From an uncultured Eubacteriales bacterium (GTDB lineage: Bacteria; Bacillota; Clostridia; Christensenellales; UMGS416), in assembly GCA_900542005.1 (NCBI GenBank), contig UQLW01000010.1, positions 6,179-70,178 of the forward strand: a stretch of DNA of 64,000 bases, in the 5' to 3' direction. The notes under the pieces are model-generated. The model was not told the origin of the DNA, ran no database searches, and saw only the letters and a list, made by a program, of their open reading frames with translations. Shown here one piece after another: positions 21,324 through 29,655 of this stretch. The translations under genes and the position numbers were made by a program. The first letter of the stretch is position 1, and each line of letters starts with the position of its first letter.

Positions 21324-22478
21324 TTATTTTCCAGCGTCGGCTATCGCCGCCATCAGCGCCTGGCGGCTCGCATCGCTGAGCGTATCCTGCAGGGTTTCAT
21401 AGGTCATCCCATCAAAGCAGGGGCCTGCAATATAGGGCCCCTTGCCCTGGGCATAGCATACCAGGGCCGCCTTCTGGGGATCCAGGGCCCGGTTGTATTC
21501 GCTGAAGAGCTCGTTTTCACAGAACACAAGCCGGTAGGGGCCCAGGCAAAGGGTATCAATCTTGGCGTCGGCCTGCAGCCTTTCCGGATGGGCCAGGTTC
21601 CTTTGGGAGAATTCGATGCCGTACTGCAGCACCTCCCGCTCCCGGGCGCTGTAGTATTCGGGGATCACCAGGCTGCTTGGATCCTTGAGGCTGTGGGACA
21701 GCGGCAGCAGCCGCTCCCGATAGGCCAGGGTAAGGGGATGGGCCGGGGCTGACAGCGCCAGCAGCCGGTCGAATTCATCGGCCATTTTTCTTCCAAAGGC
21801 CTCCATCTGCCCTTCTGTCTGCTCCTTCCGGGTAAAGCGGGTGCTTACGTCGCCGGCCGCGCCCTGCAGGAAGGCGAAGAATTCACCGGGGTGGCGCGCC
21901 TCCAGCAGCCGCAGGGCTGCGCCGGGATATTCGCCGGTAAAAAAGGGCGTGTCGCCGCCCAGCACGGTGGGGTGGCAGTTGTAGAGGCAAAGCGAGGCGA
22001 TGCGGGTGGCCCCTTCATAGAGGCAGAGCGTATGGGCCAGTATCTGGTCGGTCTGCCAGCGGCTGATCCGGCTGTCGCCGATTTGGCGGTAGGGCTCCCA
22101 GGCATAGCCGCAGGTAAGCGCAGCGCTCCGGGGCTTCAGGGCAAGGATGGCCTCTGTAAGCTGCCGGAGGACCAGCGCCTCATAGGCGGGGTCGTCAATA
22201 TCGGGCCCGAAATGGGTGTGGGTGCAGCAGATGACGACGTGCGCGGCGGCGCCCCAGCGGGCCTCCAGGGCCTGCTGCAGCTGGCGCTGCAGGCTGCGCG
22301 GGCTGTAGCATAGATCCAGCGCGCAGAGCACAAAGGACGCCTCTTCCTGCCGCAGCAAGAGAATGCGCCCATAGAGGAAATCCCGTATCCGCTCCATGGG
22401 CTGGGTTTGCTGGGCGTAGCCGATGGCCTTAATGGGGGCCTGCGGGTTGATGCAGACCTTGGTGGTGGCAATTTGCAT
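21324..22478 (-). CDS. Hypothetical hydrolase, neutral-ceramidase-N-terminal-like
   Basis: The match is weak (CCTHTHFGPD plus overall layout). It probably shares an operon with the alpha-galactosidase gene (24-nt gap). Confidence 0.45.
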   Translation of the reverse strand: MQIATTKVCINPQAPIKAIGYAQQTQPMERIRDFLYGRILLLRQEEASFVLCALDLCYSPRSLQRQLQQALEARWGAAAHVVICCTHTHFGPDIDDPAYEALVLRQLTEAILALKPRSAALTCGYAWEPYRQIGDSRISRWQTDQILAHTLCLYEGATRIASLCLYNCHPTVLGGDTPFFTGEYPGAALRLLEARHPGEFFAFLQGAAGDVSTRFTRKEQTEGQMEAFGRKMADEFDRLLALSAPAHPLTLAYRERLLPLSHSLKDPSSLVIPEYYSAREREVLQYGIEFSQRNLAHPERLQADAKIDTLCLGPYRLVFCENELFSEYNRALDPQKAALVCYAQGKGPYIAGPCFDGMTYETLQDTLSDASRQALMAAIADAGK

Positions 22479-22644: not shown

Positions 22645-22674
22645 GCAAAAAAAGAAGCCGCCTAATAGGCGGCT
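22645..22674 (-). terminator. Rho-independent terminator (minus strand)
   Basis: The stem agccgcct/aggcggct is followed by a T-run on the minus strand, downstream of the serpin gene. Confidence 0.55.
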
Positions 22675-22726
22675 CCTAGGCGGGCGCGGCCTGCGCGCAT
22701 CCGATCAGGCGCGCGGCGCGGCCCCG

Positions 22727-24184
22727 TCAGGGCTGGTTCACCACGCCCATGAAAAGCGTCATGCCGTCGGCGCCGGTAACGGCGAACAGGAAGGGGCGGT
22801 CGAGGGTGAAGTCCACCTCGTCCTGGGGCATGGCCGCGCCGGCCATCATCATGACCGTGTAGGCGGCGGCTGTGCAGCCCTCCTCGTCGATCGCTACCCG
22901 GACCCCCTGCTGGGCCTGCGATAGGAAAATTCCGTCCACCGCCCCGGTCATGGGGCTGAAATCGGAGACATCGGGCTGGAATACGTCGGTGACGCCCAGC
23001 GATTCCAGCCCCTCGCGCAGCGAAAGCTGGGCGCTGATATCGAATTTGGGTACCGCGAGGTTGACCAGCGTGGCTTTGTGGTTTGCCCAGTCCTCCTGGC
23101 CGGTGAATAAGAACGCCATCGCCTCGTCATCCTGAAGCAGCGACTGAACGTCCGTCCCCTCGTCCGGAAGAATAAACCACATGGCCCCGCCGTTTTCCAG
23201 CCCCTGAGCCACGGCGGAGAAATTCTCGCCCCAGTAATAGTCGCCCATGACCGATTGACGCATGAAATCCACGGATTTATCGCCGGATGCGCTGTGAAAA
23301 ACGCCGGGCCCGGTCAGGGAGGGATCAAATTCGTGGCTCCACTTGGCCCGGAAGTAAACGGTGGTGGCCAGGGCCATGACCGTGCCGGCATCCAGCTTCA
23401 GCGCGTCCACCTGATCCTTCAGGAGGCCGCCCGTCTGCTCGTTGAGCCAGTTTTGCAGGGCGGCGTTAAAGGCGTCGGAGCCCATCTCACCCCGGTAGGC
23501 CGAGGCATAATAGCTTTGCGCCAGCCGGTCCAGGGTCTCCTGGCGGAAGGGCACCCGCTCATCCAGCCACAGGGAGCTGGCCAGGACGCTGGTAACTGCG
23601 CCATCGTTCCGGTAGGCGCCGTTCCATAGGGCTGAAGCCTGGGCGCGCAGGGCGTCCATGTCGGCCACGTTCAGCAGCGAAAGCACCTGCTGCCGGCTGT
23701 CGCCCTCCGTCAGCTCGGCCAGCATGCCCAGCGCGATATACAGGTTCAGCGGGGAATAGGCCCGGTTCTCGGTACCGGCCCCTGAAAGGAATTGGCGGGC
23801 TGCCGCGGTGAAGAAACCGTCCATGCCCTGGGTATAGCCTTCCGAGCGCTGGCGCTGCGCCTGGACATCGTGCCACCAGGCGTCGTAGCTCTCCTGGAAG
23901 GAATCAAGATATTCGCCGGTTTCCGGATCAATATGGGCCTGCTCATCAGGATAGGGGGCCATTTGGGGATAGGCGGGCTGGGCCAGAGCATAGGCGGTAA
24001 GCGGGGACGGGCTGCCCTGGGGCCAGAGCAGCACCACGGCCAGCACCGCCGCCGCCAGCACCGCGGCGCAGGCCGCCTGAAAGGCAGGGCGCCGGACGAG
24101 AGCCGTGGGGCGGGCCTCCAGCGTCCGGCGCTTCAGGGCGTCCGGCACATGGAGCTGTTCATTGGCCCTTCGATAGCGGTTCAT
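22727..24184 (-). CDS. Membrane-anchored serpin (short cytoplasmic N-terminus + TM helix + serpin domain)
   Basis: The serpin body runs from YSPLNLYIALGMLAELTEG to the hinge DEEGCTAAAYT and the C-terminal FTLDRPFLFAV. Residues 33-55 or so form a hydrophobic helix (AACAAVLAAAVLAVVLLW). The start overlaps the sigma-factor stop (ATGA). Confidence 0.85.
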   Translation of the reverse strand: MNRYRRANEQLHVPDALKRRTLEARPTALVRRPAFQAACAAVLAAAVLAVVLLWPQGSPSPLTAYALAQPAYPQMAPYPDEQAHIDPETGEYLDSFQESYDAWWHDVQAQRQRSEGYTQGMDGFFTAAARQFLSGAGTENRAYSPLNLYIALGMLAELTEGDSRQQVLSLLNVADMDALRAQASALWNGAYRNDGAVTSVLASSLWLDERVPFRQETLDRLAQSYYASAYRGEMGSDAFNAALQNWLNEQTGGLLKDQVDALKLDAGTVMALATTVYFRAKWSHEFDPSLTGPGVFHSASGDKSVDFMRQSVMGDYYWGENFSAVAQGLENGGAMWFILPDEGTDVQSLLQDDEAMAFLFTGQEDWANHKATLVNLAVPKFDISAQLSLREGLESLGVTDVFQPDVSDFSPMTGAVDGIFLSQAQQGVRVAIDEEGCTAAAYTVMMMAGAAMPQDEVDFTLDRPFLFAVTGADGMTLFMGVVNQP

Positions 24185-24651
24185 AGGTCAACCTCCTTCA
24201 GGGATGCACGCAGCAGGCCGCGGCCCCGGCTGAGCCTGGACTTGACGGTCCCCTGGGCGCAGCCGCAGGCCGCCGCAATCTCCGCCACGGACAGCCCTTC
24301 AAAATAATGCAGATGGATGACGGTGCGGTAGGGAGCGGGAAGGGCCAATACGGCGGCGTACACCGCCCGGTCAGGCTCGGGGACCGAGAGCTGGGCGGCC
24401 AGCTCCATGGGCAGCACCCTGCGCCGCCAGGGCGCAGAGGCCAGGCTCTTGGCGCGGTTGACGGTACAGCGAATCAGCCAGGCCTTCTGGTGCTCGGCGG
24501 TAGTGAGCCGCCCTTCATGGCGGAAAAAGCGCAGAAAAACCTCCTGAAAAATGTCCTCGGCGTCCTGGAGCTTACCCGTACGGGCCAGCGCCAGCCGCCA
24601 TACCATATCGCCCCAACGCTCGACCATGCAGGCGCGCTGCTGTTGATTCAT
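24181..24651 (-). CDS. ECF-type RNA polymerase sigma-70 factor
   Basis: Region 2 (DAEDIFQEVFLRFF) and the region 4 HTH (LSVAEIAAACGCAQGTVKSRLSRGR) are present. I prefer the ATG at 24651, which follows a GGGGAAGGGG RBS. Confidence 0.85.
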   Translation of the reverse strand: MNQQQRACMVERWGDMVWRLALARTGKLQDAEDIFQEVFLRFFRHEGRLTTAEHQKAWLIRCTVNRAKSLASAPWRRRVLPMELAAQLSVPEPDRAVYAAVLALPAPYRTVIHLHYFEGLSVAEIAAACGCAQGTVKSRLSRGRGLLRASLKEVDL

Positions 24652-24860
24652 GACCCCTTCCCCTTTCTTCTTTACACCGGCGTTCATCTATAATACCCTG
24701 GAGGAGGGCGAAAGGTTGCATAGAATTTTAGCCCTTTTTGCGGCCCCCTACCGCGAAAGGGGGCCGGGTCTTCAGGCAAGGCTTGATGCCTGCCCGGCGC
24801 CGCCGGGAAAGCCGGCGAAAACGGGAAGCGCCGCCGCCCCGACGCCAATCAAACGGCGGG

Positions 24861-25533: not shown

Positions 25534-26439
25534 CTACTGGCGGTCGTCATAGCCCAAGTCCCGCAGGACGTTGGCCGAGTCCCGCCAGTTGTCGCGGGCC
25601 TTGACCCATAGCTGCAGGTTGATGGGGCTGCCCAGCAGGGTTTCCATATCGGCGCGGGCGCGGGTGCCGATTTTCTTGAGCATGTCGCCCCTTTTGCCCA
25701 CGACGATCCCCTTGTGGTTTTCCCGCTCCACAATGATATCGGCATGAATATCCACAAGGTCGCTCCCCTCGCGCTTTTTCATCTGCACGACCTCCACGCC
25801 AATGCCATGGGGAATCTCGTCGCGCAGCAGCGAGAGGGCCTTTTCGCGGATGATTTCCGCCACGATGACCCGCTCGGGCTGGTCGGTATACATTTCCTCA
25901 GGAAAGTAGCGCGGGCCTGGAGTCAGATGGGCGGCGATCAGCTGCTCCAAAAGGTCGACGCCCTCGAAGGTGCGGGCGGAAATCGGTACGATTTCCGTGA
26001 TAAACTCGTATTCCCGGAACAGGTCCATGGTTTTGAGCAGCGAGGTTTTGGGCACCAGGTCAATCTTATTGAGAACCAGGATAACCGGCGTGCGCTTGAG
26101 GGTAGCGAGCCGGTCCATCACGGCCCGGTCGCCGCCGCCGACCGGTACCGAAGCGTCCATGACCGCCAGCACCACGTCCACATCCTCCAGCGCCGCGCCT
26201 GCGGAGCGGACCATGAACTGCCCCAGCCGGTTGTGGGGCCGGTGCAGGCCGGGCGTGTCGATAAAGACAATCTGATAGTCGGGCCGGTGCAGCACGCCGC
26301 GGATCTGATTGCGGGTGGTCTGGGGGCGGTCGGACACGATGGCCACCTTTTCGCCTACCATGGCGTTGACCAACGTGGATTTGCCCACGTTGCTGCGGCC
26401 GATCAGCGTAACAAAGCCGGATTTATACTCTTGTTGCAT
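25534..26439 (-). CDS. era: GTPase Era
   Basis: The G1 motif GRSNVGKST, G3 motif DTPG and G4 motif NKID are present, with a C-terminal KH domain. The product is 301 aa. Confidence 0.95.
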   Translation of the reverse strand: MQQEYKSGFVTLIGRSNVGKSTLVNAMVGEKVAIVSDRPQTTRNQIRGVLHRPDYQIVFIDTPGLHRPHNRLGQFMVRSAGAALEDVDVVLAVMDASVPVGGGDRAVMDRLATLKRTPVILVLNKIDLVPKTSLLKTMDLFREYEFITEIVPISARTFEGVDLLEQLIAAHLTPGPRYFPEEMYTDQPERVIVAEIIREKALSLLRDEIPHGIGVEVVQMKKREGSDLVDIHADIIVERENHKGIVVGKRGDMLKKIGTRARADMETLLGSPINLQLWVKARDNWRDSANVLRDLGYDDRQ

Positions 26440-26463: not shown

Positions 26464-27231
26464 TCAGGATGGAAGATACCAGCCGCCGTCCCGGCGGCAA
26501 TAGAGCGGGCAGGGAGGCGGGCTGGCGGGCATGGCGGTACAGGCGCAGGCCAGCGGCCCTACGGCTGGAGGCAGCTTGGCCAGCGCGCCTGCAAGGGCGG
26601 CGCTTCCATCGGGCCCTGCGGCTACATACAGCGTACCATCCTCGCCCAGCACCGCCGCCCCCTGGGGCGCGGCGGCGTCATCAGCCCCGCAGGTGAGCTC
26701 GGCCAGCGCGCCCTCGGTGACAAGGGCTGTCCGCGGCAGGCCCAAAGCCAGAAGGATCTTCTCCTCCAGGGCGCGCATCAGCGCCTTATCCTCGGCGGTC
26801 TCGTGGTCGTATCCCAGCAGGTGCAGCATACCATGCACGGTCAAATAGGCCAGCTCCCGGGAGGGGCTGTGGCCGAATTGCTGCGCTTGGCGGTCCGCCG
26901 TGGGCATGGAGATGACAAGGTCGCCCAGCATGACCTCGCCGGTCAGCGGATCCTTTTCCAGCTGCAGGGCTTCGTCCTCCTCCCAGGGGTCGGCCCCCTG
27001 CTCGTAACCGTCGCCATAGTCGATCATGGGGAAGGAGAGCACATCGGTGGATCTGTCGATTCCCCGGAAGCGTTGGTTCAGCTGGCGGATGGCCTCATCA
27101 TCCACCAGCGTAAGGCCCACCTGGGCGTCGGAGACGCCGCCATGGAGAGCCAGGGTCGTCTCGACCGCCCGCTTAAGCAGCGCTTCGTCCACGGGGAAGG
27201 CCTGCTGCTCGTTATTGATCATAATGGTCAT
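26464..27231 (-). CDS. ybeY: Endoribonuclease YbeY with a C-terminal extension of about 90 aa
   Basis: The YbeY zinc motif HGMLHLLGYDH is present. The product is 255 aa, against about 150-165 aa for typical YbeY proteins. The start overlaps the pgpH-like stop (ATGA). Confidence 0.85.
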   Translation of the reverse strand: MTIMINNEQQAFPVDEALLKRAVETTLALHGGVSDAQVGLTLVDDEAIRQLNQRFRGIDRSTDVLSFPMIDYGDGYEQGADPWEEDEALQLEKDPLTGEVMLGDLVISMPTADRQAQQFGHSPSRELAYLTVHGMLHLLGYDHETAEDKALMRALEEKILLALGLPRTALVTEGALAELTCGADDAAAPQGAAVLGEDGTLYVAAGPDGSAALAGALAKLPPAVGPLACACTAMPASPPPCPLYCRRDGGWYLPS

Positions 27232-29420
27232 GCCTTTTGCTCCTTTTCCATGGGCGGATACTGGATCCGCTCATGATAGATGCCGCTGAGCACCGAAAGG
27301 AAGACCTGGGTAATATCCTCCAGCTGACCGAAGGTCAGGTCGCAATAATCCAGCTGGCCGTCCTCCCGCTTGCCCTTTATGATGCGGCGCACCATCTCCT
27401 CCATCCCCTGGGGCGTGTGCTTGGGCATGGAGCGCACCGCAGCCTCCACCGAATCGGCCAGCATGATGATGGCTTCCTCCTTGGTGGCCGGTACGGGCCC
27501 GGGATAGCGGAAATCAGCCTCCTGAACCGTGGCGGGATCCTCGGCCTCCTTTTGGGCTTTTACGTAGAAATAGGCGGCCAGCGTATCGCCATGGTGGCTG
27601 GCAATGATATCAACGACCTCCTTGGGCAGGCGGAATTTACGGGCCAGCTCCTGGCCGTCCAGCACATGGCTGACCAGGATGCGGGCCGACAGCGCGGCGT
27701 CGATCTGATCGTGGGGATTTTCTATCCCCACCTGATTCTCCTTGAAGAAATTCGGCCGACGCAGCTTGCCGATGTCGTGATACAGCGCGCCGCATCGGGC
27801 CAGCATGGGATTGGCCCCGACCTCCTCGGCGGCGGATTCAGCCAGGTTGCTGACCACCACCGAATGATGGTAGGTACCGGGCGCCTCCAGCAGCAGCTGG
27901 CGCAGCAGCGGCTGGTTGGGATTGGTCAGCTCCATTAGCTTCATAGGCGTCACCAGCCGGAAGAGGCCCTCCCACAGGGGGAAGGAGCCCAGCACAATGA
28001 CAGCCGAACCCAGGCCGTTCCCCAGGCAATACAGCGCGGTGGACAGCAGCCGGTTCTGCACGAAATCCATGATTTCCATACCCATCATCTGACAGATGCC
28101 AAAGACGGCCAGGCAAACGGCCGATACGGCGGCCCCGCAGAGCATGACCGTGCCGCGTTGGGCGCTGGTGGTCATCATGTTGATGGATAGGGTGCCCGAA
28201 AGCAGGGTGGCGGCCATGACCGGCAGGGCGTTGGCCGAGAGGGGGACGCCCGCCTCGCCGGCCAGCATCCCGGCGAAGATCGCCAGCAGCGCGTTCATGA
28301 CATAGGCTACCCTGCGGTTGAGCAGCATGGCGTAGAGGGTAGCGGCCACGGCCATGGGCATCAGCTGGTAGGAGACCTTGCGGCCCAGCCAGCACAGGGC
28401 GATGGAGAGCACCGCGACCATAACGAGCAGGGCATAACGGGGCAGGTCGTCCCACAGGGGACGCTCGAAGAGCACAAGATACATACCGCCCACAGCAAAA
28501 ACGATCACGATGAGCAAGATGATGCCCCAATACAGCGGCGCGTCGTTACGCTCCTCCTCCAGGATGCCCAGCGCGCTGAGCATGTCGTATTGGGCGGCCG
28601 AAATCACATCGCCCTTGCGCACGATGGACTGGCCGCTCATGATCATGACGGGCGCCACCTTATCGGCGGCCTGCTGCTTGGCGTTTTCCGTCGCCTCCTC
28701 ATCATAGATGAAGTTAGGCTGCACCAGCGCGCCGGCTACCTCGACCGCAACGCGCTGGGCGTCCTCCGTCAGCCCCCATTCCTCGCTTCGCAGCGCGCGG
28801 CCGATGAAGACAAGCTGTTCATTGAGCTGATCCTGCTTGATCCCGTTTTCCAGCGCGGTGTTGACCTGCTGCAGCGTTACCTCGCGCATGGTGTCAAAAT
28901 CCTCCTGGCGCATATCCAGCAGGGCTATCAGCGACTGATTGGAGAGGGAGACGCCCTGGATGGTTTCGTTGCAGGAGGCGAGGAACTCTGCGGTATAGTC
29001 CATGCTGGCGGTTGCGCTGCCCGGCAGGGAGGCCTGCTGCATCATGCGGGAGCGCTCCTGTTCGCCCAGGGCCCGTACCTGCTGCATCTGGTCAAAGCAG
29101 GTGTTCATCGCGCTCATCACGCTTTGGGTGATGGCGGTATCCTCGGAATAGCTCATGCCCACCGCCTCCCGGGCCGCCTCCCGGGCTGCCTCGGTTTTCG
29201 CAGTGTCCTCCACGGTGCGGGGCGCATAAATATCCTCGGTAGCCACCATGCCCTGCTCCACCGTGTGCCGCTGGGGGGTGATGACCGTCTCAATCATCAT
29301 GGCGTAGACCAAAAGCGCCGCTACAAACGCGATCAGCGCGCGGAAGAGCACACCGCTGGCCCGCCGCCAGCCGGCTAAAAAGCGCTGCCCCAAGACGGCC
29401 TTATTCTGCGCCTGTTCCAT
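27228..29420 (-). CDS. 7TM-HD membrane phosphohydrolase (PgpH/YqfF-like)
   Basis: A large extracytoplasmic N-domain is followed by about 7 TM helices and an HD domain (HSVVVSNLAE...LYHDIGK). I prefer the ATG at 29420, which has a GGAAGGA RBS. The track start at 29438 lacks an RBS. Confidence 0.85.
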   Translation of the reverse strand: MEQAQNKAVLGQRFLAGWRRASGVLFRALIAFVAALLVYAMMIETVITPQRHTVEQGMVATEDIYAPRTVEDTAKTEAAREAAREAVGMSYSEDTAITQSVMSAMNTCFDQMQQVRALGEQERSRMMQQASLPGSATASMDYTAEFLASCNETIQGVSLSNQSLIALLDMRQEDFDTMREVTLQQVNTALENGIKQDQLNEQLVFIGRALRSEEWGLTEDAQRVAVEVAGALVQPNFIYDEEATENAKQQAADKVAPVMIMSGQSIVRKGDVISAAQYDMLSALGILEEERNDAPLYWGIILLIVIVFAVGGMYLVLFERPLWDDLPRYALLVMVAVLSIALCWLGRKVSYQLMPMAVAATLYAMLLNRRVAYVMNALLAIFAGMLAGEAGVPLSANALPVMAATLLSGTLSINMMTTSAQRGTVMLCGAAVSAVCLAVFGICQMMGMEIMDFVQNRLLSTALYCLGNGLGSAVIVLGSFPLWEGLFRLVTPMKLMELTNPNQPLLRQLLLEAPGTYHHSVVVSNLAESAAEEVGANPMLARCGALYHDIGKLRRPNFFKENQVGIENPHDQIDAALSARILVSHVLDGQELARKFRLPKEVVDIIASHHGDTLAAYFYVKAQKEAEDPATVQEADFRYPGPVPATKEEAIIMLADSVEAAVRSMPKHTPQGMEEMVRRIIKGKREDGQLDYCDLTFGQLEDITQVFLSVLSGIYHERIQYPPMEKEQKA

Positions 29421-29655
29421 ACCCTCATCCTTCCTCATCCGGCCGGTATGCCGTTTTTTGCCTGTTTCCTAGGCGCCTAGGTGTATCTATCCAAATTATA
29501 CCCTTCTTCGGCTTTTCTGTATAGTGGCTGTTTTTCCTGAAAGGACGGGGATTTCACCGGATCGTGCCGTAGTGCGCACAGCGCCGGGCGGCAGCCGACA
29601 TCCGGGCCTTATGCGGCCCGTTTGCGCTGAAATCCCGTGAAAAACGCCATATCGC

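Follow-up and report, generated by a model that had tools for sequence, protein, structure and literature searches.

The subject of this analysis is a pair of overlapping genes, encoding an extracytoplasmic function (ECF) sigma factor and a membrane-anchored serpin, on the minus strand of a 64-kb stretch of DNA from an uncultured Eubacteriales bacterium (contig UQLW01000010.1 of assembly GCA_900542005.1, positions 6,179 to 70,178). The whole stretch is hereafter referred to as the window, and coordinates are given in its numbering. The product of the upstream gene (24181..24651), 156 amino acid residues long, matches Sigma70_r2 (E=9e-12), Sigma70_r4_2 (E=2e-16) and Sigma70_ECF (E=9e-5) in Pfam. 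It contains only regions 2 and 4 of the sigma-70 family, which, together with its length, identifies it as an ECF (group 4) sigma factor; its orthologues are 57-87% identical. In NCBIfam, it scored 66.2 bits against the sigma70-ECF superfamily model TIGR02937 (cut-off, 42.9 bits) and reached the cut-off of no equivalog model, the SigV model giving 60.6 bits where 190 are required. While the longest open reading frame (ORF) spans 24687..24181, the true start is almost certainly the ATG at 24651 (MNQQQR...), because the orthologues are 156-160 residues long, because a G-rich ribosome-binding site (GGGGAAGGGG) lies upstream of 24651, and because the conserved promoter described below implies that transcription begins at about 24686, just past the alternative ATG at 24687.

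The TGA stop codon of the sigma gene (24183-24181) overlaps the ATG start codon of the serpin gene (24184-24182) in the sequence ATGA (24181..24184), an arrangement expected to couple their translation. Upstream of the sigma gene is an ECF-type promoter, consisting of a -35 element GCAACC (24714..24719) and a -10 element GGGTAT (24693..24698) separated by a 15-nt spacer. Sigma genes at related loci, here designated by L numbers (L001, L047, L065, L077, L081-L088 and L097), are preceded by the conserved motif GCAACC-N15/16-GGGTAT, as are those of the nearest non-serpin relatives, which are linked to beta-propeller proteins (L090-L102). Such a conserved upstream promoter is the usual signature of ECF autoregulation, and the sigma factor of the window is predicted to recognise it, so that the operon is presumably autoregulated. 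An intrinsic-terminator-like hairpin of 11 pairs with a T-run (22653..22677) sits 50 nt past the serpin stop codon, and the operon would thus comprise two genes only: a predicted unit of promoter, two translationally coupled genes and terminator.

The downstream gene (22727..24184) encodes a single-pass membrane protein of 485 residues. Residues 1-32 (MNRYRRANEQLHVPDALKRRTLEARPTALVRR; 24089..24184), hereafter referred to as the N-peptide, contain nine lysines and arginines against three aspartates and glutamates (net charge, +6). They are followed by a hydrophobic transmembrane segment, residues 33-53 (PAFQAACAAVLAAAVLAVVLL; 24026..24088), which AlphaFold2 (AF2) rendered as a helix at 33-52. 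Lysine and arginine are absent from the 32 residues that follow, and this positive-inside charge pattern predicts that the N-terminus is cytoplasmic and the C-terminus extracytoplasmic. Next come 75 residues (23801..24025) comprising a juxtamembrane linker (54-59) and a conserved pre-serpin extension (60-128, YPxMAPYPDE...YDAWW), in which Y72, P73, P79 and W103 are invariant among 109 homologues. The remainder, residues 129-485 (22730..23800), is a serpin domain (Pfam PF00079, E=1e-62, model positions 11-370 of 370). The AF2 model, built on 109 sequences, had a mean predicted local distance difference test score (pLDDT) of 85 and a predicted template-modelling score of 0.81. In the model, the N-peptide forms two short helices (2-9 and 15-23), the linker region (53-59) is disordered (pLDDT <50), and the extension, which has a long helix (94-114), appears to pack on the serpin body (pLDDT 76-92). 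The top Foldseek match in the PDB was tengpin (2pef; target-normalised TM-score, 0.85), with the serpin matches spanning 0.8-0.89, and a PDB sequence search returned conserpin, plant serpin-ZX and tengpin. Tengpin is a serpin of a thermophilic species of Clostridia. Pfam, AF2 and Foldseek thus agree on a full-length serpin fold. The initial annotation, made from the letters alone, had reported the ATGA overlap, assumed the sigma start at 24651 and described the partner as an N-terminus of about 30 cytoplasmic residues, one transmembrane helix and a full extracytoplasmic serpin; the features listed above bear out all three readings.

Database searches returned more than 4600 relatives of the serpin, the best 120 of which are all 426-656 residues long and, with one exception, have the pre-serpin extension. 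Two kinds of N-terminus occur among such serpins, a lipoprotein signal peptide (total length, about 458 residues) and a cytoplasmic peptide of about 35 residues plus a transmembrane helix (about 485 residues); the extension is found in lipoprotein and in sigma-linked serpins alike. In species-representative genomes, at least 586 stretches encode a relative of the window's serpin, and we analysed the best 80 of these loci, all of them from gut-type Clostridia (the closest, from Candidatus Parachristensenella avicola, with 79% identity). An ECF sigma gene lies directly upstream of 46 of the 49 serpins with the cytoplasmic peptide and transmembrane helix, and beside none of the 28 lipoprotein-anchored serpins. 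Fisher's exact test gave p=6e-18 for anchor type versus sigma linkage, a contingency test that ignores shared ancestry, with the anchor types interleaving on a serpin-domain distance tree. At all 46 sigma-linked loci the sigma gene is on the same strand and overlaps the serpin gene, with the 4-nt overlap as the commonest junction, and Pfam confirmed the upstream ORFs as ECF-type sigma factors. The recurrence of this overlapping pair in 46 of the best 80 loci argues that it has not arisen by chance. A survey of this kind had been suggested by the initial annotation, which regarded loss of the adjacency in relatives as grounds for giving up its proposal; the adjacency is kept.

Of the three transmembrane-anchored serpins without an adjacent sigma gene, one is truncated by the end of its contig and two have degenerate peptides. 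The latter (L073:3372-4874 and L014:4004-5431) have lost the class-B motif described below, the L073 gene being a second copy after a normal pair, and they look like decayed or orphaned anti-sigma forms.

Some pairs have a second serpin gene 150-230 nt downstream (L004:5563-7299, L059:5454-6230 and L064:3488-5269), which also occurs as a stand-alone gene (L013:3539-5272 and L019:3434-5272). Its product begins with what resembles a signal peptide and includes an additional N-terminal domain of about 150 residues, which has no Pfam match. This second serpin may be secreted and controlled by the sigma factor.

The sigma-linked serpins fall into two classes according to their sigma factors and N-peptides. 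In class A (the window, L001, L047, L061, L065 and L077), a sigma factor of 156 residues is paired with the peptide MNRY+KANExIHxPxxLK. In class B, to which the majority of the sigma-linked serpins belong, a sigma factor of about 185 residues is paired with the peptide xxLYdAItdIdDdLIeeAE. The two classes of sigma factor are barely similar to each other (phmmer, E about 1e-4), and each is always paired with its own peptide. We searched an alignment of class-A sigma factors against metagenome contigs. Relatives with at least 60% identity were followed by a serpin gene in seven of nine cases, as was one low-GC relative at 45% identity. Those at 31-55% identity were followed by genes for non-serpin single-pass proteins with diverse ectodomains, which matched Beta_propel (five proteins) and RsgI_M (two proteins), and also Peptidase_M23 and VWA, in Pfam. 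DUF4179 was found among them once above the gathering cut-off and three times more weakly. The Pfam description of RsgI_M is 'anti-sigma factor RsgI-like central domain'. In RsiV, the anti-sigma factor that acts on sigmaV and binds lysozyme, DUF4179 forms the juxtamembrane domain (PMC8844934). The cytoplasmic N-termini of these non-serpin partners share the motif xYrxxxdxIhxPxxLxxrT, followed by basic residues and then the transmembrane helix.

We built a hidden Markov model (HMM) from 46 of the N-peptides of the non-serpin partners of related sigma factors, including the DUF4179 proteins of L104, L106, L114 and L120 and excluding all serpins. The N-peptide of the window's serpin scored 33.6 bits against this HMM, whereas 5000 shuffles of the same peptide reached at most 12.2 bits and 1364 unrelated ORF N-termini at most 7.8 bits. 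Lipoprotein N-termini reached at most 2.1 bits, and class-B peptides averaged 1.8 bits. When the HMM was run over all six frames of the window, the N-terminus of the serpin was the sole match (26.7 bits; the next score was 5.8). We found no second copy of this module and no other ECF sigma gene in the window. These results indicate that the N-peptide is a member of a modular family of N-termini of sigma partners, among them those of recognised anti-sigma types (DUF4179 and RsgI_M). Being homologous to the N-terminal modules of the non-serpin partners of related sigma factors, it would be more than a plain anchor.

Class B provides a parallel case. Sigma factors that are 61-65% identical to a serpin-linked class-B sigma factor have overlapping non-serpin single-pass partners with the class-B peptide, which indicates that the same serpin family has been recruited independently by a second, unrelated class of sigma factor and N-peptide. 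Within the serpin domain, the window's protein shares 51-54% identity with four other class-A serpins, whereas its identity with class-B serpins reaches 61%. Since the class-A serpin domains are not one another's closest relatives, this pattern suggests that the sigma factor and its peptide were exchanged as a unit relative to the serpin ectodomain, and that the combination was made more than once. We relied here on pairwise identities; a neighbour-joining tree of the serpin domains, which has no support values, mixes classes A and B and the lipoprotein forms.

The class-B query returned more than 6900 sigma relatives. Four of the non-serpin partners with the class-B peptide (L161:3555-4640, L162:3557-4477, L164:3558-4571 and L166:1684-2646) are 306-361 residues long, and none of these four ectodomains had a match in Pfam. 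The class-B non-serpin partners look like a large uncharacterised anti-sigma family in Clostridia. Just upstream of its class-B pair, L162 also has a second ECF sigma gene (160 residues) overlapping the gene for a single-pass partner of 697 residues (L162:246-2811), whose N-terminus (MKYKERYKEVFSQIHPTNEF...) resembles the class-A motif, and thus both module classes would coexist in one genome.

Taken together, the conserved pairing and the N-peptide match make it highly probable that the serpin protein is the anti-sigma factor of its ECF sigma factor. The initial annotation had placed the serpin in the anti-sigma position on the strength of gene order, and the shared module now supports that placement at the level of the peptide itself. 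The same annotation considered that a separate canonical anti-sigma gene would speak against the idea; none is present in the operon or in the 64-kb window, to which this search was confined, nor does either contain any other candidate regulator.

What the serpin ectodomain would contribute depends in large part on its reactive-centre loop, residues 436-455 (GCTAAAYTVMMMAG-A/A-MPQD; 22820..22879). Alignment to the reactive loop of conserpin-AAT (alpha-1-antitrypsin) placed the predicted P1-P1' bond at Ala450-Ala451, which suggests elastase-like or subtilisin-like targets. The hinge reads G436-C-T-A-A-A-Y-T443, and the pattern DEEG[CV]TAAAYTV is kept across the serpin family, identically in the sigma-linked and the lipoprotein forms, while the loop tip is variable. 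The tip (445-453) had low pLDDT, consistent with an exposed loop. By sequence, the loop thus conforms to the inhibitory type (Gly at P15, small residues at P12-P9, exposed loop), although Cys at P14 is unusual. We conclude that the ectodomain is a complete serpin whose hinge is of the inhibitory type and whose predicted P1 residue is small. The AF2 model rendered the hinge (436-443; 22856-22879) as a beta-strand beside strand 425-432, and Foldseek matched the model best to serpins in the latent or cleaved state; in the model, the loop may be inserted in part.

These features bear on the possibility that the protein is an anti-sigma factor but not a protease sensor, its serpin fold binding a ligand or having a structural role without inhibiting proteases, as in ovalbumin and the hormone-binding serpins, or guarding the anti-sigma factor from stray proteolysis while the signal itself is general envelope stress. 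Consistent with this possibility, related sigma factors have partners with many different, unrelated ectodomains, the module thus tolerating any sensor; P14 is Cys or Val where Thr or Ser is usual; and the AF2 model has the hinge as a strand and latent or cleaved serpins as its best fold matches. We nevertheless consider it rather unlikely, since Gly at P15, three alanines at P12-P10, Thr at P8 and a variable exposed tip make up an inhibitory signature that is identical in both anchor forms, and since the second, secreted-type serpin downstream in some related operons fits an anti-protease output.

According to another explanation, the serpin is an effector only: a membrane-tethered protease shield produced under the control of the sigma factor, with the N-terminal segment as a mere signal anchor and the sigma factor controlled otherwise, by an unlinked anti-sigma factor, by its own transcription or by turnover. 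A scan of the window for GCAACC-N15-17-GGGTAT with one mismatch allowed per hexamer gave 10 matches against 10.3 expected, and the only perfect match was the operon's own promoter; the serpin is therefore the sole visible output of a promoter of this type in the window, as a shield would be. In addition, searches of Pfam (E<=10) and NCBIfam (E<=0.01) matched no curated anti-sigma model to the serpin N-terminus, returning only a spurious TetR_C_34, and the lipoprotein-anchored paralogues show that the ectodomain works without a sigma factor. A plain anchor, however, needs no conserved motif shared with DUF4179, RsgI_M and beta-propeller partners, at a score that shuffled peptides did not approach (33.6 versus at most 12.2 bits), and each of the two unrelated sigma classes comes with a matching N-peptide of its own. 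Moreover, one would expect to meet a sigma gene next to some of the lipoprotein forms, but the counts are 0 of 28 versus 46 of 49, and neither the operon nor the window offers a different regulator. An effector without a regulatory role is therefore improbable. The two alternatives offered by the initial annotation, a protease sensor and a sigma-controlled shield, are not exclusive: as the operon is the sole detectable target of a sigma-type promoter in the window, the serpin seems to act as regulator and main output at once.

We thus return to the reading that we favour, in which the serpin protein is an anti-sigma factor that responds to proteases. At rest, the N-peptide would keep the sigma factor at the membrane. 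The reactive loop would come under attack from an extracellular serine protease, probably an elastase-like enzyme of the host or of microbes, upon which the serpin would trap the protease covalently and flip to its relaxed form; alternatively, excess protease would degrade the ectodomain. The spent or damaged ectodomain would be clipped near the membrane (site 1), a site-2 protease would then cut within the membrane, as it does for RsiV, RsiP and RsiW, and the released sigma factor would transcribe its own operon and replace the consumed inhibitor. As the serpin is a single-use inhibitor whose destruction would free the sigma factor, its resupply would match its consumption. For protease-triggered release of the sigma factor taken as a step by itself, we see the case as evenly balanced. 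The entire chain, a self-regulated two-gene sigma/anti-sigma module with a serpin ectodomain in which protease attack leads to sigma release and re-expression of the operon, falls just on the probable side. A more specific version is tentative: the protein might be a spring-loaded, single-use transmembrane receptor, in which capture of the protease and the stressed-to-relaxed flip free the pre-serpin extension and expose the juxtamembrane segment to site-1 cleavage, with intramembrane proteolysis and sigma release to follow.

Besides the shared ancestry underlying the pairing statistics, several observations weigh against this proposal. The N-peptide, which no anti-sigma model in Pfam or NCBIfam matches, has a core of only about 25 residues, far shorter than the class I anti-sigma domain. 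Inhibition is predicted, and P14, usually Thr or Ser, is here Cys or Val. A cut in the reactive loop takes off no more than about 35 residues at the C-terminus, and because this alone shortens the ectodomain too little for a site-2 protease, an extra site-1 step must be assumed. An A-x-A motif near the membrane (A63-Y-A65 in the window's protein) was considered as a mark of RsiV-like site-1 cleavage by signal peptidase, and was rejected because it is equally common in the lipoprotein paralogues (22 of 28, versus 40 of 46 sigma-linked serpins). Finally, the promoter search covered 64 kb only, a span within which a regulon beyond the operon is not definable.

Least probable is that the serpin targets an envelope serine protease of its own cell (HtrA/DegS-like, or a subtilisin-like site-1 enzyme) and sets the threshold for its own cleavage instead of sensing host proteases: signal peptidase, a serine protease, is the site-1 protease for RsiV and RsiP, DegS is the site-1 serine protease for RseA, and the small P1 Ala also suits subtilisin-like enzymes, but neither the window nor the inspected loci have a protease gene linked to the operon, and the family occurs mainly in Clostridia of the gut, an environment rich in elastase-like host proteases. 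Such control is in any case a variant of the favoured explanation and not its true opposite.

Among known systems, the closest is sigmaV/RsiV, and by analogy we infer that the window's protein works like RsiV without being a member of its family. RsiV, a DUF4179 anti-sigma factor, binds a host hydrolase, lysozyme, after which signal peptidase and RasP cleave it (PMC8844934). In both systems an ECF sigma factor is co-transcribed with a single-pass partner that has a short cytoplasmic N-terminus. The RsiV ectodomain binds the host hydrolase directly, the output being resistance to that hydrolase (PMC8844934). The DUF4179 partners of relatives of the window's sigma factor bear the same N-peptide motif, and SigV is among the NCBIfam matches of that sigma factor. 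The differences are that the window's ectodomain is a serpin and not the lysozyme-binding fold of RsiV; that the protein has no match to DUF4179, the juxtamembrane domain in which factors of the RsiV type have an amphipathic helix concealing a signal-peptidase site; that its sigma factor, at 60.6 against 190 bits, is not a SigV equivalog; and that a serpin binds its target covalently and irreversibly, so that each sensor molecule could fire only once.

The class I anti-sigma factors (RsiW, RseA and RslA) resemble the serpin protein in that their genes lie directly downstream of the ECF sigma gene and in that they are single-pass proteins, presumably subject, as it would be, to regulated intramembrane proteolysis. 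They have, however, a four-helix domain of about 80 residues where the window's protein has 32 cytoplasmic residues without HxxxCxxC, zf-HC2 or RskA. With no Cys/His motif and no match to an anti-sigma model, membership in the class I anti-sigma domain (ASDI) or zinc-binding anti-sigma (ZAS) families was rejected.

With other bacterial serpins (tengpin, the siropins, the Bifidobacterium serpin and miropin), the window's protein shares the full serpin fold and the inhibitory-type hinge; tengpin, the best structural match, also has a functional N-terminal extension. These serpins are described as secreted or soluble, and none is reported with a sigma-binding anchor or an ECF sigma factor. Gut bacterial serpins inhibit elastase-like host proteases (PMC5127057). 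Expression of the Bifidobacterium breve serpin is described, in a reference cited in PMC8201313, as autoregulated via a two-component system. The regulator in that account is separate from the serpin, whereas the inhibitor encoded in the window would itself be the receptor.

The initial annotation knew of no characterised serpin that acts as an anti-sigma factor, and our full-text searches of the literature likewise turned up no publication that ties a serpin to an anti-sigma factor or an ECF sigma factor; serpins are also absent from the main text of the 2021 ECF reclassification. The serpin would thus be a previously undescribed and mechanistically suggestive sensor domain among the ectodomains of ECF sigma partners, found in what appear to be two independent sigma/anti-sigma lineages. 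ECF sigma/anti-sigma pairs are a major route of bacterial signalling, and for most of them the input is unknown. Here the putative sensor is a serpin, a protein of well-understood biochemistry for which serine proteases are the obvious class of ligand, so that the input signal is directly testable. If the proposal is true, an irreversible suicide inhibitor serves as a receptor and use of the inhibitor is coupled to its resupply, a mechanistically distinct kind of input. The spring-loaded version, if true, would be the first use of the serpin conformational change for transmembrane signalling, and would provide abundant gut commensals with a direct sensor of host proteases. Members of this serpin family are widely distributed among gut Oscillospiraceae, Lachnospiraceae and related Clostridia, and sigma-linked loci make up more than half of the best 80. 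The system is also present in cultured strains, namely Pseudoflavonifractor phocaeensis An507, Flavonifractor sp. AGMB03687, Cuneatibacter sp. NSJ-177 and Hominifimenecus sp. rT4P-3. Gut bacterial serpins are already under study as elastase inhibitors relevant to inflammatory bowel disease, and if many of them are protease-inducible and membrane-bound, their interpretation and exploitation will change. In synthetic biology, an adapted sigma/serpin pair might also find use as a biosensor for proteases.

The operon lies among housekeeping genes (those for a CDP-alcohol phosphatidyltransferase, an Era-like GTPase and a GH36 alpha-galactosidase). Its GC content, 0.63-0.67, matches that of the flanks; horizontal transfer was considered and rejected, there being no sign of a foreign island. 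Between the gene for the Era-like GTPase (25534-26439) and an ORF for a multi-pass protein of 736 residues (27228-29438) is an ORF of 255 residues on the minus strand (26464-27231), which overlaps that membrane-protein ORF by 4 nt and encodes an Ala/Pro-rich C-terminal tail. The gene that follows the operon terminator (21324-22478, minus strand) encodes a protein with a sub-threshold match to the N-terminus of neutral/alkaline ceramidases (28.7 bits; cut-off, 32.1 bits) and has a sigma-70-like promoter match of its own at 22600-22572.

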